32,000 bases of DNA from Staphylothermus marinus F1 (GTDB lineage Archaea > Thermoproteota > Thermoprotei_A > Sulfolobales > Desulfurococcaceae). This document shows, one piece after another, positions 11,643 to 29,270 of this stretch. The translations under genes were made by a program, and so were the position numbers. A model generated the notes under the pieces. That model ran no database searches, was not told where the DNA came from, and worked only from the letters and a program-made list of their open reading frames with translations. Every line of letters begins with the position of its first letter. Position 1 is the stretch's first letter. Location: the NCBI RefSeq assembly GCF_000015945.1, contig NC_009033.1, positions 1,500,001 to 1,532,000 of the forward strand. Reading direction: 5' to 3'.

Positions 11643-11917
11643 TAATTAACGATCACCATGCTTTAGATAAAATAATACTTAGTTTAAAACATATGGTTTC
11701 CCTTACATCATTTTGCTACAATAAATACTTGAACAAGCTTCTCCCTCTTACAGTATTAGGATTTTAATACTTTTCATTGAGGTATCTTTAGACTATTCGC
11801 TTGTTTAGATGCTATGGTTGTTTTGGAAATTATGAAAACTATGATTGTTTTGAGGGTTAGTTGTTAGGTTCGTTTTATATATTTTTGTATAGTTTTTATT
11901 GGTGGTGGGGGTTGGGG

Positions 11918-13144
11918 GTGAGGGTTTATGCAACCGTTAAGATAAGGGCGGTTGCCCCCAATCCCAGCCTCCACCACAAACTCTATCTATTTCTTAGATC
12001 ATATTGTGACTGGACACAGTATATTATAGATAATATATGGTTTGAAGATAAGATTCCATCTATGAAGAAACTACACGACAAATTTTATGGTTTGTTGAGG
12101 AGCATGGGTTTTCGTGCACATCACTGCCACAAAATTGAGCGTAGAGCAAAAGAAATTGTTAAATCCGTTAAGAAGAATAGGGGTAGGAAACCAGTATTGA
12201 GAAAATTAACAGCTAGAATAGATTATGAAGACTATAGACTAGATTTGAGGAGTAAAACATTGAAGATAGCTGTGCTCGATAATGAATGGATAGTTTTGAA
12301 GCTTAAATGGTACAGTTACATAAACAAATATATTAGTGATGATTGGAAGCTTAAGGAAATACTTGTATCTTTTAGAAACAATAATATATGGATATACTTG
12401 GTTTTTGAGAGAGAAGTTGTTTTTAGGAAGCCTAGAACTGTTATGGGTGTTGATATTAATTTTGACAACATAACATATACTATACTGGACATGAATGGTA
12501 GATTAGTATCTATGGGTATTATTCCATTCAAGGGTTTACGTAGAGCACTTCATTATAAGAAGCTTGCTGAGAAATTGCAGAAGAGGTATCCTAGGAATTG
12601 GAGATATGTTAAATGGGTTAGAAATGTTAGAGCTAGATGGTTGGGGAGAGCTAAGAACATATTGAGAGACACATCACACTATATAGCCAAAAAGATTGTA
12701 GGGATAGCAGATGAACATAACTCGGTAATAGTATTAGAGGATCTAAAAAATATTAAATCAAATAATAAGGGTAAAAGGTTTAATTGGAGAATAAATTTCT
12801 GGACATATCGTAGAATACAGGAGTACATCTACTATAAAGCATTAATAAAGAATATTCCTGTAGCATTCATTGATCCAAAATACAGTTCTAAGAAATCACC
12901 TATAGGTGATAGATTAATTTTCATAAACTATAGGTATGTTAGGTTGCCTAATGGATTCATTGTTACTCGCGACATTATTGCTTCATGGAACCTTGCACTC
13001 AGATATCTGCGGATGAAGGGCTCTGGGTGGTCTATGTGGAGCCCCGATAACTCCCTCAATGAAGGAATGAAGCCCCAACTCAAGAGGGGGAAGCCCGTGC
13101 AAGTATCAAAAATAACCAAAATAACCATAGTTTCTAAAAGATAA
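11918..13144 (+). CDS. tnpB: TnpB/OrfB RuvC-like (RNA-guided) endonuclease, zinc-ribbon cysteines absent
   Basis: RuvC-I is VMGVDINFDN, RuvC-II is VIVLEDLKNIK and RuvC-III is VTRDIIASWNLA. GTG at 11918 is the likely start, because the upstream 19 codons of the ORF-track frame lie in the IS left end. The usual CxxC...CxxC segment is replaced by YSSKKSPIGDRL...VRLPNGF. Confidence 0.85.
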   Translation: MRVYATVKIRAVAPNPSLHHKLYLFLRSYCDWTQYIIDNIWFEDKIPSMKKLHDKFYGLLRSMGFRAHHCHKIERRAKEIVKSVKKNRGRKPVLRKLTARIDYEDYRLDLRSKTLKIAVLDNEWIVLKLKWYSYINKYISDDWKLKEILVSFRNNNIWIYLVFEREVVFRKPRTVMGVDINFDNITYTILDMNGRLVSMGIIPFKGLRRALHYKKLAEKLQKRYPRNWRYVKWVRNVRARWLGRAKNILRDTSHYIAKKIVGIADEHNSVIVLEDLKNIKSNNKGKRFNWRINFWTYRRIQEYIYYKALIKNIPVAFIDPKYSSKKSPIGDRLIFINYRYVRLPNGFIVTRDIIASWNLALRYLRMKGSGWSMWSPDNSLNEGMKPQLKRGKPVQVSKITKITIVSKR

Positions 13145-13158
13145 TGCACGGGCAACCA
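13009..13158 (+). ncRNA. candidate omega/reRNA scaffold overlapping the tnpB 3' end and right end
   Basis: The segment is conserved at nucleotide level in two loci that lack a tnpB ORF (28251-28392 plus strand, 25436-25577 minus strand). The stems gggctc/gagccc (13018-13023/13039-13044) and gcccgtgc/gcacgggc (13093-13100/13146-13153) are kept in all copies while the loops diverge. Confidence 0.4.
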
Positions 13159-13330
13159 TTAATATTTCTATCCAACCCTAAACCTTTTCATCACATAGGG
13201 GATCAAGGTAATAGATATGTTGGAGACGTAGTTGCTGATCAATTCCTTAACGGAGTCTAGCCGAGATAATTTATATATATTCATATAGGTTTATAGAATA
13301 ATAATAGTAGATACTTCTTGTAAGTATTGT

Positions 13331-17913: not shown

Positions 17914-18163
17914 TCCTACAAATTATACACTATCAAGAAAAATTAAGACAGTTTATATTTGAACACTCTTCAATCTCTAAATAGAAGTTTCGTTTCAACC
18001 AATTTAAATTATAAAGAATTGTTCTAATATATTAGTAAAGTAATAGATTTTTATTTTTCTGGTTTTATTTTTATATTTTATTATATAAACAGAATATAAA
18101 ATTTTCTCTAAAAATAGAAATTCTGTTTGTATAATAAAATACTGAAATAGCTGGATTAGAGGA

Positions 18164-18715
18164 ATGTTGATTATGAGAACTATTCCTGCGAGGTTGTTAA
18201 GTGTCTTGCTGTTCATTCTAGTAGTTGCTTTAGTGTTTTTATCGTTACCAGCAAGTGCAGAGTTAGAACCAGTTCTTTTATCATCTGATAGCGGATCTCA
18301 TGGATATAAAGGAGCAGATACGACGATTGCTTTCTCCTTCAGTTATGGTGGTAAAACATTTACGGTCAATGTTTATGTTAGTGGAGCTGATGCATATGAT
18401 GCTGCAGCATTAGCTCTGCTCGGCGTTTATGACACGGATCTTCATGAATGGACTGGTTTCGGTGTATTTGATAGATATACTGCTAAAGATTGGTATGGAC
18501 CTGGCTTATGGGAATCCTATCATTTCACTTTAACGAGTGAGCAGGTCCATGGACCATTGAAAACATATTTTAGTTATGGCGTTATGGAAGTAACGGGATC
18601 AGCGAATATTGTATATGAGGTTACCCATTGCACGTGGTGGGGGGTATTATGTAGTAGTTGGGAGGATGTATATGTTCTTACAGCAGATGCAATTGTACGT
18701 AATGGATTTATATAA
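18164..18715 (+). CDS. secreted hypothetical protein (signal peptide)
   Basis: The N-terminus MLIMRTIPARLLSVLLFILVVALVFLSLPASA is signal-peptide-like. The remainder is rich in aromatic, Gly and Thr residues. Confidence 0.55.
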   Translation: MLIMRTIPARLLSVLLFILVVALVFLSLPASAELEPVLLSSDSGSHGYKGADTTIAFSFSYGGKTFTVNVYVSGADAYDAAALALLGVYDTDLHEWTGFGVFDRYTAKDWYGPGLWESYHFTLTSEQVHGPLKTYFSYGVMEVTGSANIVYEVTHCTWWGVLCSSWEDVYVLTADAIVRNGFI

Positions 18716-25329: not shown

Positions 25330-25435
25330 GAGGTTGTTGTGAATAGTTTTTCGCCGAACATACTTGTTTATCTCTCCAATATTATTTGTTTCATCTCTTA
25401 TCACAGTATATGTATATTATTCGTTAGGCTATGAT

Positions 25436-25700
25436 GTGGTTGCCCGTGCATTATCTTTTGGTTATTTTGGATATTATGGGTACTTGCACGGGCTTCCCCC
25501 TCTTGTGTCGGGTTTTCATCCCTTCATCGAGGGGGCTATCGGGGCTCCACACCGACCACATAGAGCCCTTCATCTGCTTTTTATTAACCATAATATTAGT
25601 GAGGGGTTTATAAAGTGAACCCTATGCATACAAAACATGTTCCGAATAGTTTTCATAGCTTCTAAAAGAGCCGAAATACCCAAATAAATGAACAGTCTAA
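25436..25700 (-). mobile_element. MITE-like non-autonomous derivative of the IS200/IS605 element (left end plus right end/omegaRNA-like module)
   Basis: The reverse complement begins ttagactgttcatttatttgg.. (left-end-like) and ends ..aaaagataatgcacgggcaaccac (right end). It shares an identical 63-nt core with copy C and the gttcactttataaacccctcactaata junction segment. There is no tnpB ORF. Confidence 0.65.
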
Positions 25701-27312: not shown

Positions 27313-27720
27313 TTAAGCTACATAGTATATTTTAACACCTAAGGCTTCAGCTATTTCTGCCTGTTTCGCATCACTTGTGAGGAGTTCGCCGTGTTTAATT
27401 GCACATGCTATGTATAATGAATCATATAATGTAATACTATGGTTTAACGCTATCTCTAATGCTTTACCCATATATTCTTCCTGGTTTTCAAGAAATATTA
27501 TCTCTTCATCCACAAGTCTGCGAAGTTGCTTGTAGAGAAGTATTGCTTGTTTCTTCGTAATCCTCTTATATATTACTGTATGTTTCCATATAGCATTAGC
27601 AACTTCTTTTAAAACATGGTCTAAGCTATAAACACCTTGTTCTAGGTATTTTTCTATGCTCAACCAGTTTCTCTCCTTCAACAAATACTTTGCTAAGGAT
27701 GATGCATCAATAACTATCAC
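27313..27720 (-). CDS. vapC: PIN-domain VapC toxin
   Basis: MIVIDASSL..., ...LYDSLYIACAIKHGELLTSDAKQ carries the PIN acidic residues. It overlaps the upstream antitoxin gene by 14 nt. Confidence 0.85.
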   Translation of the reverse strand: MIVIDASSLAKYLLKERNWLSIEKYLEQGVYSLDHVLKEVANAIWKHTVIYKRITKKQAILLYKQLRRLVDEEIIFLENQEEYMGKALEIALNHSITLYDSLYIACAIKHGELLTSDAKQAEIAEALGVKIYYVA

Positions 27721-27952
27721 GATCCTCCCTCACATACTTATCTGCCACTCCAACGGGTGTTTCAGGCAATTGCTCTATAATTCTTCTAACCTCTCTGAGA
27801 ACTCTTCTACGGCGAAGCTCTTTGATACGCATCTCTATAAATCTACGTATCTCCTCACTCCAGTTTATCTCATCTCTAAACTCATCCATTAATTTTTTAA
27901 GCTTACGCGGGACACGAATGCTTACAACCACACTCATAATCGTAAACACCAT
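27707..27952 (-). CDS. vapB: VapB-type antitoxin (RHH/CopG-like)
   Basis: 81 aa. The N-terminus VSIRVPRKLKKLMDEF is a beta-strand/helix pattern typical of RHH antitoxins. It overlaps the start of vapC. Confidence 0.7.
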   Translation of the reverse strand: MVFTIMSVVVSIRVPRKLKKLMDEFRDEINWSEEIRRFIEMRIKELRRRRVLREVRRIIEQLPETPVGVADKYVREDRDSY

Positions 27953-28126: not shown

Positions 28127-28392
28127 TTTAGACTATTTGCTTATTTGGATACTATGGTTGTTTTGGAAACTGTGGAAACCATGATTGTTTTAATTATTGG
28201 GTTCACTTTATAAACCCCTCACTAATATAATGGTTAATGATTTGTGAAATGCAGATGAAGGGCTCATGGTGGTCTATGTGGAGCCCCGATAGCCCCCTCG
28301 ATGAAGGGATGAAAACCCGACACAAGAGGGGGAAGCCCGTGCAGATATCCAAAGTTTCCAAAACAACCAAAAGATAAAGCACGGGCAACCAC
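28127..28392 (+). mobile_element. MITE-like non-autonomous derivative of the IS200/IS605 element (left end plus right end/omegaRNA-like module)
   Basis: 28127-28197, tttagactatttgcttatttggatactatggttgttttggaaactgtggaaaccatgattgtttt, aligns with the IS left end at 11787 onward. 28251-28392 aligns with the tnpB 3' end and right end at 13009-13158. tnpB itself is absent. Confidence 0.65.
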
Positions 28393-28490
28393 TATGATGT
28401 ATGTGAGGGGTAAGCATGGATGCTAATACTTGGTTCATCCATACCATGATCGGATACAATATATTTTCTGAGCGGACATTAATGCTTTAT

Positions 28491-28914
28491 TCATAACCTG
28501 GTTTTTAAATATTCGATCTTTGCACGTATATCGCTTAGTTCTTGGTATGATTTAAATTTTAGCCTAGTAGCTAGTGCTGGTATTTTCTCAACCACAACTA
28601 TCCCTTCTAGTGCTCTAACCCTGAACCATGAGGGGGTGTAGTCGAGAACTCTTACATCAACAGGTATTTTAACAAGTTCTTCCAGTTCCTCAGATAATTG
28701 ATCCTCGTACTCTTGCACCCTACTATATGGTATCTTATAACCTGTAAACACAGCTACATCTATGTCTCGGAAAGACTCGTATTCGATAAATCCTCCATAA
28801 ATAACTGCTAAGAGAACCTCATCCCTCCTACTTAGAGCACCTGCTATTATCTTTGCTAACCTGGACCTCTCCCCCGATCAAGTCTGTGGAATTCAAATCT
28901 TTTCTTATCTTCAA
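28491..28914 (-). pseudogene. MNT nucleotidyltransferase with a frameshift in a C5/G5 run (28871-28875)
   Basis: The NTase motif AVIYGGFIEYESFRDIDVAV lies upstream of the only in-frame start (GTG 28751) and is preceded by a TGA. The N-terminus LKIRKDLNSTDLIGGE (TTG 28914, overlapping the HepT stop) is in another frame. The two frames join at the G5 run. Confidence 0.6.
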
Positions 28915-29270
28915 GGGTCCTTAGAGACATGACTTCTTACCTCTTCAATGAACTTCTCAATAATTTGTATACCATTACTTTTAGCTTCTAAATATATTTT
29001 CTCATCATCTACATTCCAATATCTATGTACTACCATGTTGCGTAGAAATGCTAACGACTTCATTCCCTTAGCAGTCTCTGAGCTAATAACGTTATTTCTG
29101 AGAAGTTTTTCAAACACATCTCTATAGGTCCTAGCTTCTTCGCCGAAACATTTTCTTAGCAGATAAAGTCCTAGATCTGCTGAGCTCTCAATAATCAACA
29201 CTATAGAATATCTCATTGAGAACCGTGATCTTCTACTAGTAATGAATGATCTAAAGTCCTCTCTGATCAA
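28911..29270 (-). CDS. hepT: HepT-type HEPN toxin (DUF86)
   Basis: The Rx4H motif is in LRNMVVHRYWNVD. 119 aa with a TTG start. Here HepT lies upstream of the MNT gene, the reverse of the other two pairs. Confidence 0.8.
   Translation of the reverse strand: MIREDFRSFITSRRSRFSMRYSIVLIIESSADLGLYLLRKCFGEEARTYRDVFEKLLRNNVISSETAKGMKSLAFLRNMVVHRYWNVDDEKIYLEAKSNGIQIIEKFIEEVRSHVSKDP

Follow-up and report, generated by a model that had tools for sequence, protein, structure and literature searches.

In ISDra2 of Deinococcus radiodurans, analyzed by cryo-EM, the nuclease TnpB is directed by an RNA (omegaRNA) that arises from the tnpB 3' end and the transposon right end, with the flanking DNA as the guide; the resolved scaffold of 116 nt has four stems and a pseudoknot using nucleotides -5 to -3, and pseudoknots with the nucleotides just 5' of the guide are likewise found in Cas12 guide RNAs (PMC10097598). 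In Geobacillus stearothermophilus, gene-less IS200/IS605 mini-elements resembling palindrome-associated transposable elements (PATEs) "often encode omegaRNAs" and are acted on in trans (Meers et al., PMC10055086). In archaea, the accessible parts of two papers describe, for Halobacterium salinarum, sense non-coding RNAs (sense overlapping transcript RNAs, sotRNAs) at the 3' end of IS1341-type tnpB (PMC4615843) and, for Sulfolobus islandicus, the experimentally active thermophilic TnpB SisTnpB1 with an omegaRNA and the transposon-adjacent motif (TAM) TTTAA (PMC11579290); copies borne on miniature transposable elements with inverted repeats (MITEs) are not described in those parts. Here we analyze a tnpB gene of the hyperthermophilic archaeon Staphylothermus marinus F1 and three copies of its 3' end, all located in a window of 32,000 nt (NC_009033.1, positions 1,500,001 to 1,532,000). 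The TnpB clades and RNAs of the two archaeal precedents differ from those of S. marinus. Judged from sequence and its covariation, the conserved segment is very probably the scaffold of an omegaRNA (also called right-end RNA, reRNA), serving as guide RNA for the TnpB encoded by this gene and by its three S. marinus paralogues.

The repeated segment lies at 13009-13159 (+ strand, copy A), 25436-25577 (- strand, copy B) and 28251-28392 (+ strand, copy C), as an earlier examination of the bare nucleotide sequence (hereafter the sequence-only reading) had proposed. Over about 142 aligned nucleotides the pairwise identity is 87.9% for A and B, 86.5% for A and C, and 90.8% for B and C, and all three reach 167-183 bits (E-values of 1e-37 to 1e-41) with the covariance model derived from them. 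Chance is excluded as the cause of this match. Copy A consists of the last 136 nt of the tnpB open reading frame (ORF), whose stop codon ends at 13144, and about 15 nt downstream of it. The sequence-only reading had placed B and C outside any tnpB coding context, and tblastn indeed matches them to the translated tail alone (residues ~358-403); the 63-nt core that it ascribed to B and C is identical in the two (alignment columns 31-93). The gene and the predicted RNA features are as follows.

11918-13144, + strand: tnpB, 408 amino acids, GTG start; above the cut-offs of PF07282 and TIGR01766, RuvC triad present
13009-13159, + strand: predicted omegaRNA scaffold A; stem S1 at 13018-13023/13039-13044, S2 at 13051-13057/13084-13090, S3 at 13093-13100/13146-13153
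13027-13031 with 13155-13159, + strand: predicted pseudoknot of scaffold A, GUGGU with ACCAU
25436-25577, - strand: predicted omegaRNA scaffold B; S1 at 25568-25563/25547-25542, S2 at 25535-25529/25502-25496, S3 at 25493-25486/25449-25442, tail at 25441-25436
28251-28392, + strand: predicted omegaRNA scaffold C; S1 at 28260-28265/28281-28286, S2 at 28293-28299/28326-28332, S3 at 28335-28342/28379-28386, tail at 28387-28392

Each copy folds in silico into the same three stems, S1 (GGGCUC/GAGCCC), S2 ((C)CCCCUC/GAGGGGG) and S3 (GCCCGUGC/GCACGGGC), with folding z-scores of -2.8 to -4.3. Two of them (GGGCTC/GAGCCC and GCCCGTGC/GCACGGGC in the DNA) had already been named, and both are intact in all three copies; the terminal loop measures 45 nt in A as against 36 nt in the other two, again as claimed. 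That structure was incomplete, however, as a third stem and a pseudoknot are also present. In the pseudoknot, the loop of S1 (GUGGU) pairs with the last 5-6 nt (ACCAC), directly before the presumed guide. The scaffold thus drawn is 142-151 nt in size, overlaps the last ~45 codons of tnpB and reaches the right end of the transposon.

Among the three window copies only one of the 42 stem columns varies, compared to 33 of the 109 other columns (Fisher's exact test, p = 6.6e-5), and this single change, C to U, keeps a G.U pair. The sequence-only reading had named uniform identity, loops included, as the pattern that would speak against a structured RNA; this objection fails because the variation among the window copies avoids the stems. 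It could be argued that recent duplications left B and C as decaying remnants, resembling A through shared ancestry alone and with stems preserved by luck, since only three copies of 86-91% identity are at hand and the S. marinus MITEs, to which B and C belong (see below), are considered recently active in the accessible text of PMC2678158. Besides the non-uniform variation, covariation of these stems in dozens of genomes and metagenomes, among them mini-elements with a wholly different S1, makes such a coincidence highly improbable.

Covariation was analyzed in 79 loci that encode relatives of the window protein, all from metagenome-assembled genomes of Desulfurococcales. In these, the covariance model of A, B and C detected 56 further copies at E<1e-6, about 50 of which are located at tnpB 3' ends. 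In the model-fitted alignment, 91.8% of the cells are paired and 18 out of 24 pairs show compensatory double changes; the covariation score is 0.338, as compared to 0.125 after shuffling (reached by none of 500 shuffles) and at most 0.09 with slid partners. A structure-blind MAFFT alignment of the 56 right ends gave similar values, with 95.3% of the cells paired, compensatory double changes in 14 out of 16 pairs, and a score of 0.347 versus 0.157 after shuffling (0/500) and at most 0.093 with slid partners. RNAalifold, one of the covariation tools suggested along with the sequence-only reading, finds the same three stems on this structure-blind alignment.

The right ends fall into two subfamilies, one with the S3 arms GCCCGUGC/GCACGGGC and the tail AACCAC (group 1), the other with CCCCGAGG/CCUCGGGG and AAACCC (group 2). 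The partners of the pseudoknot switch together between them, so that loop and tail can pair throughout: all 33 sequences of group 1 combine GUGGU(U) with AACCAC, and all 23 of group 2 combine GGGUU with AACCC. The best helix between loop and tail has a mean length of 5.5 nt, compared to 3.8 nt for shuffled loops. In the loci L009 (4096-4305) and L118 (3146-3355), the S3 loop has the opposite orientation to that in the other family members, and both strands are matched by the covariance model; the DNA of the loop was apparently inverted there, with the 8-bp stem arms acting as the inverted repeats.

The conservation might instead stem from selection on TnpB's C-terminal tail, with B and C as pseudogene fragments of it. 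The tail motif ...KRGKPVQV... does appear conserved in protein alignments, and the tblastn alignments of B and C extend over residues 358-403. The codons argue otherwise: in 26 full-length genes, the entropy up to codon ~360 is ~1.2 at position 3 versus 0.2-0.6 at position 2, whereas in codons 361-405 it is 0.8-1.0 at all three positions. The loss of codon periodicity coincides with the start of the scaffold (13009 is at about codon 364), in agreement with the earlier proposal that stems rather than codons are conserved. In addition, B and C lack a start codon as well as an upstream ORF and abut the left end of the element, and the conservation runs ~15 nt beyond the stop codon to the element end. 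Finally, in mini-elements such as that of locus L012 the fold is kept with no detectable protein similarity. It is therefore hardly conceivable that the protein tail explains the conservation.

The gene product is identical to the S. marinus protein P0001 except for the start residue. It scores 32.8 with PF07282 (cut-off 26.3), 60.8 with TIGR01766 (cut-off 32) and 91.5 with NF040570, just under the cut-off of 100, and the family profile matches the solved TnpB structure 9nzp with an E-value of 1.8e-13. The RuvC D-E-D triad (D179, E274 and D352) is invariant in the family alignment. All four cysteines of the zinc finger (CxxC...CxxC) are missing in the whole Desulfurococcales clade, whose members are ~53-100% identical to the window protein; the clade reads ...TSKTSPIGG..L.FINYRW... 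where canonical TnpBs have TSQxCxxCG...C..C, and it keeps the RuvC triad. The missing zinc finger does not exclude membership in TnpB, because its loss has been documented in some large TnpB branches (PMC10691335).

Copy A is the right end of a full-length element. The sequence-only reading was correct in that B and C carry the right-end repeat; they are not isolated right ends, however, since both also carry the left end of the element and are thus complete mini-elements rather than right-end fragments.

11794-13159, + strand: full-length TnpB-only insertion sequence of ~1.37 kb that includes copy A; delimited by left-end homology to B, C and other loci, and by loss of similarity after ...AACCAC/T
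11788-11793, + strand: TTAGAC beside the left end of copy A, candidate TAM or first bases of the left end; the same in all three window copies
11873-11882, + strand: TATA-like box TTTTATATAT, presumed tnpB promoter judging by its sequence, ~45 nt upstream of the start codon
25436-25694, - strand: mini-element B, 259 bp, with left end, TATA-like box and right end and no TnpB ORF; TTAGAC at 25700-25695
25607-25614, - strand: TATA-like box TTTATAAA of B, with its start 37 nt before that of the scaffold (25577)
28134-28392, + strand: mini-element C, 259 bp, with left end, TATA-like box and right end; TTAGAC at 28128-28133
28207-28214, + strand: TATA-like box TTTATAAA of C, beginning 44 nt upstream of the scaffold start at 28251
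28223-28230, + strand: second AT-rich box of C, read from the sequence

The left end of B and C comprises ~110 nt that align to the region upstream of tnpB, and tnpB itself has been cleanly deleted. A 43-nt piece spanning the junction between left and right end is common to B and C (95% identical); therefore, a single deletion event took place, after which the deleted form spread as mini-elements. The TTTATAAA box of B and C lies in left-end sequence homologous to the promoter-like region of tnpB in copy A. The TATA-like boxes of all three copies would act as promoters, and B and C can accordingly be regarded as putative compact units of promoter and guide RNA.

B and C have the traits of MITEs: they are smaller than ~300 bp, contain no ORF, are homologous to A at the left as well as the right end, and belong to a repeat with multiple copies at different sites. 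The 2009 genome paper of S. marinus (Anderson et al., PMC2678158) reports, in its accessible text, a MITE of ~260 nt present in 14 copies, similar to the region upstream of four single-ORF "transposase" genes (the similar elements Smar_0083, 0767, 1150 and 1546), with flanking inverted repeats and placed in the IS607 family. B and C are these very MITEs, repeats that have thus been known since 2009; the accessible text of that paper, which predates RNA-guided TnpB, holds no RNA interpretation, and the guide-RNA reading of B and C is what we add.

Mini-element C is flanked by genes of toxin-antitoxin type, a PIN-domain gene (27313-27720) that overlaps a small upstream ORF (27707-27952) on one side and a HepT-like ribonuclease gene (28911-29270) on the other. 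Another MITE copy disrupts a PIN-domain gene elsewhere in the S. marinus genome, according to the accessible text of PMC2678158.

At the right end, similarity stops abruptly after ...GGCAACCAC (AACCAC) or ...GGGGAAACCC (AAACCC), and the flanks of all copies are unrelated. Copy A ends with a T at 13159 (...AACCAT), which keeps a G.U pair in the pseudoknot. With this T counted as part of the right end, position 13160 (TAATATTTC...) is most probably the first of guide A, one base downstream of where the sequence-only reading had put it; the guides which that reading proposed for B (ATCATAGCC..., from 25435 downward) and C (TATGATG..., from 28393 onward) agree with the boundary. The figure of 16-20 nt for the guide length is an assumption taken over from known TnpBs.

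13160-13179, + strand: presumed guide A, TAATATTTCTATCCAACCCT, placed by the end of conservation at 13159
25416-25435, - strand: presumed guide B, ATCATAGCCTAACGAATAAT, placed by the right-end boundary
28393-28412, + strand: presumed guide C, TATGATGTATGTGAGGGGTA, placed by the right-end boundary

At the left end, GACT is invariant across at least 37 left ends of the family and is preceded by A or G and often by T, while group 2 has (A)AGCC alone. The sequence (T)TAGAC is a candidate TAM. The last two bases are equal at the left junction and the right end, ..GAC and ..CCAC in group 1, ..GCC and ..ACCC in group 2. This match is compatible with an IS607 core dinucleotide and also with the TAM and transposon-encoded motif pairs of IS605. 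The family label differs between sources, being IS607 in the accessible text of PMC2678158 and IS200/IS605 TnpB-related in the NCBI name of the window protein. No tnpA was found between the element ends, the left end being located 130-300 nt upstream of tnpB, and no empty (uninserted) site was present among the 200 loci searched.

The likeness to ISDra2 is considerable. In both, the guide RNA is placed at the tnpB 3' end plus the right end and the guide is the flanking DNA; the scaffolds are of comparable size (116 nt resolved versus 142-151 nt), with several stems and a guide-proximal pseudoknot, and the nuclease is of the RuvC type with a D-E-D triad. On the other hand, the two RNAs have no detectable sequence similarity, the 5' partner of the S. 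marinus pseudoknot is in the S1 loop, and the S. marinus TnpB, from a hyperthermophilic archaeon, lacks the CxxC...CxxC zinc finger. The TAM of ISDra2 is TTGAT, as compared to the candidate (T)TAGAC, and ISDra2 has a Y1 TnpA partner, while the S. marinus element has no tnpA between its ends. With the PATE-like minis of PMC10055086, B and C share the absence of genes, the retention of both ends and of the omegaRNA, and the need for TnpB and transposase in trans, which for S. marinus is presumed. They differ in belonging to an archaeal lineage and in having a TATA-like box at promoter distance from the scaffold, and the metagenomic minis described below differ in their remodelled S1 and S2 and an extra 5' hairpin. 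Altogether, this is very probably a well-behaved case of the omegaRNA class, a known kind of system and not a new one.

Several points weigh against the omegaRNA reading. Cells of the G.U type (42) are not in excess over those of the A.C type (52) in the first alignment, so strand-specific pairing in RNA is not demonstrated by that alignment; in the mini scaffolds from metagenomes the tally is about 14 versus 3. The sequences come from few clades, and the cell counts overstate the number of independent changes, while the covariation of the pseudoknot may rest on only one or two evolutionary events. A small inner helix of 3 bp that had been drawn inside S2 was dropped, as only 62% of its cells were paired. 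No match to the window scaffold was obtained in Rfam 15 at the gathering thresholds, just noise at E-values up to 10, which says no more than that the curated models do not cover this RNA, and a literature search yielded nothing on a transcript, binding or cleavage for these elements in S. marinus. The left ends of the family establish no fixed TAM of 4-5 nt, just N-R-GAC. The only two-ORF element of the genome has a truncated first ORF, according to the accessible text of PMC2678158, which makes a working transposase, and with it current excision and homing, uncertain.

A further point of this kind lies in the loop of S3. In mini-element C, the left-end segment 28155-28176 is an inverted repeat of the S3 loop at 28348-28369 (22 nt, 95% complementary); copy A has an equivalent repeat (11804-11840 with 13102-13138; 37 nt, 76%), as does the L012 mini (2205-2221 with 2390-2406; 17 nt, 82%), and none was detected in B, L005 and L020 at the same threshold. 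This AT-rich loop also holds the tnpB stop codon, and its partner lies ~25 nt inside the left end. These are probably the "inverted repeats" of the 2009 MITE description, and they may be paired protein-binding sites. Therefore, part of the right-end conservation acts at the DNA level and is not RNA-driven.

Taken to its limit, this would mean that the right end is solely a DNA signal for transposition, i.e. hairpins of single-stranded DNA or transposase-binding sites, with no functional RNA, at least in B and C. IS200/IS605 elements have a TnpA-bound hairpin near their end, and S3, 6 nt from the end, is similarly positioned; the repeats between S3 loop and left end resemble paired transposase-binding sites, MITEs need to retain both ends in order to move, and the lack of a G.U excess in the first alignment fits as well. 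Yet the covarying structure extends over ~140 nt and comprises three stems as well as a pseudoknot that involves the very last nucleotides; it goes far beyond known end-recognition hairpins and has the architecture of solved TnpB guide RNAs. The left end has no matching GC-rich hairpin, which IS605-type recognition would need: none resembling S3 was found in the left ends of the family or in metagenomic minis. Minis, moreover, carry a conserved TATA-like box upstream of the structure, spaced from it as a promoter would be. A DNA signal and an omegaRNA can coexist, but the former as the sole explanation is unlikely, and we would give it only a small chance.

If the segment is an omegaRNA scaffold, the following mechanism is the most likely by analogy with IS605 and IS607 TnpBs (PMC10055086; bioRxiv 10.1101/2023.11.20.567912), from which transcription, TnpB binding, guide function, homing and use in trans are all extrapolated. 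Excision of the element would rejoin its two flanks, of which the left one has a motif such as (T)TAGAC at its end. Transcription reading through ...GGCAACCAC would add 16-20 nt of flanking DNA as the guide. TnpB with its omegaRNA would then recognize the motif together with the guide match in the emptied donor site and cut it, and recombination with an occupied copy would restore the element. In the ancestor of B and C, one internal deletion would have removed tnpB and put the TATA-like box ~40 nt upstream of the scaffold; the MITE RNAs would since use TnpB in trans, B and C borrowing both TnpB and the transposase. The idea of such use in trans was already raised for PATE-like elements by Meers et al. 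(PMC10055086).

TnpB-less elements are also frequent elsewhere. Besides the mini in L012, other loci contain derivatives with internal deletions, all of which keep the right end. When metagenomes were scanned for S3 plus tail, at least 120 loci were found. Among the matches listed, 67 have at least 1600 nt of upstream sequence and 34 of these are without TnpB similarity; 26 minis, again among the matches listed, combine a left end and a right end within 239-274 bp. In the scaffolds of 21 distinct metagenomic minis and of L012, S1 takes forms such as GACCGCC/GGCGGUC, CCCGCAC/GUGCGGG and GGCGGGC/GCCCGCC around a constant ..GUGGU.. loop. The metagenomic minis further have an extra 5' hairpin and, ~27-30 nt before it, a conserved TATA-like box, whose position corresponds to that of the box in B and C. 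A 22-mer from the S. marinus MITE junction had no match in the metagenomes.

Elements of ~2035-2050 bp in the metagenomes (L082, L088, L096, L101, L133, L139, L153, L158 and L191, among others) form a third size class; they have the same left end and the same S3 plus tail, and encode a TnpB that is 21-27% identical to the window protein. Therefore, distant TnpB lineages share transposon ends and the guide-proximal part of the RNA. Two loci look like nested or interrupted copies: in L077 (2388-4345, - strand) another tnpB (36% identity), located on the opposite strand, divides a family member, and in L032 (3001-5582) tnpB is interrupted by ~1.35 kb between residues 330 and 329-408.

The abundance of such minis invites a more far-reaching idea, which we put forward tentatively and consider somewhat doubtful. 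The MITEs could be stand-alone guide-RNA genes with their own promoter whose RNAs load onto TnpB in trans for their own retention, i.e. hyperparasites at the RNA level, and the remodelled S1 and S2 and the extra 5' hairpin of the minis could be adaptations to this trans lifestyle. MITEs outnumber tnpB genes 14 to 4 in S. marinus (accessible text of PMC2678158) and account for roughly every second right end sampled from vent metagenomes, among the matches listed. With one effector serving many separately encoded and transcribed guides, they would also stand, as a natural intermediate, midway from a transposon that has a single fixed guide to CRISPR-Cas12 with its multi-guide logic.

For the uncharacterized, hyperthermophilic and zinc-finger-less TnpB clade of Desulfurococcales, the analysis provides a testable omegaRNA model with three stems, a pseudoknot, an exact right end and candidate guides, and the S. 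marinus MITEs known since 2009 can be re-read as putative carriers of TnpB guide RNAs. The many TnpB-less guide carriers in vent metagenomes suggest that use of TnpB in trans may be common in these archaea, which is relevant to the sharing of RNA-guided nucleases among selfish elements and to the origin of separately encoded guides. On the practical side, the system points to a possible thermostable and compact nuclease-RNA pair.

A second structured region is found at the other end of the gene.

11899-11980, + strand: predicted nested hairpin enclosing the tnpB start codon (GTG at 11918) and the preceding G-rich stretch; based on an inverted repeat and covariation

Its outer arms are located just 5' of the start codon and in codons ~14-18, and its inner 8-bp stem is GCAACCG/CGGUUGC. 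In a MAFFT alignment of 41 homologues (the window and 40 loci), 8 of the 15 predicted pairs show compensatory changes, e.g. UA replaced by CG in 13 sequences and AU by GC in 10. The hairpin may serve in the translational control of TnpB or in the control of mRNA stability. It lies outside the omegaRNA and is deleted in the mini-elements B and C, and is therefore dispensable for mobility.

Unrelated to the TnpB elements, an AT-rich near-palindrome with 40-nt arms (80% complementary, 4 nt apart) occupies the intergenic positions 18066-18149, upstream of an ORF at 18164.

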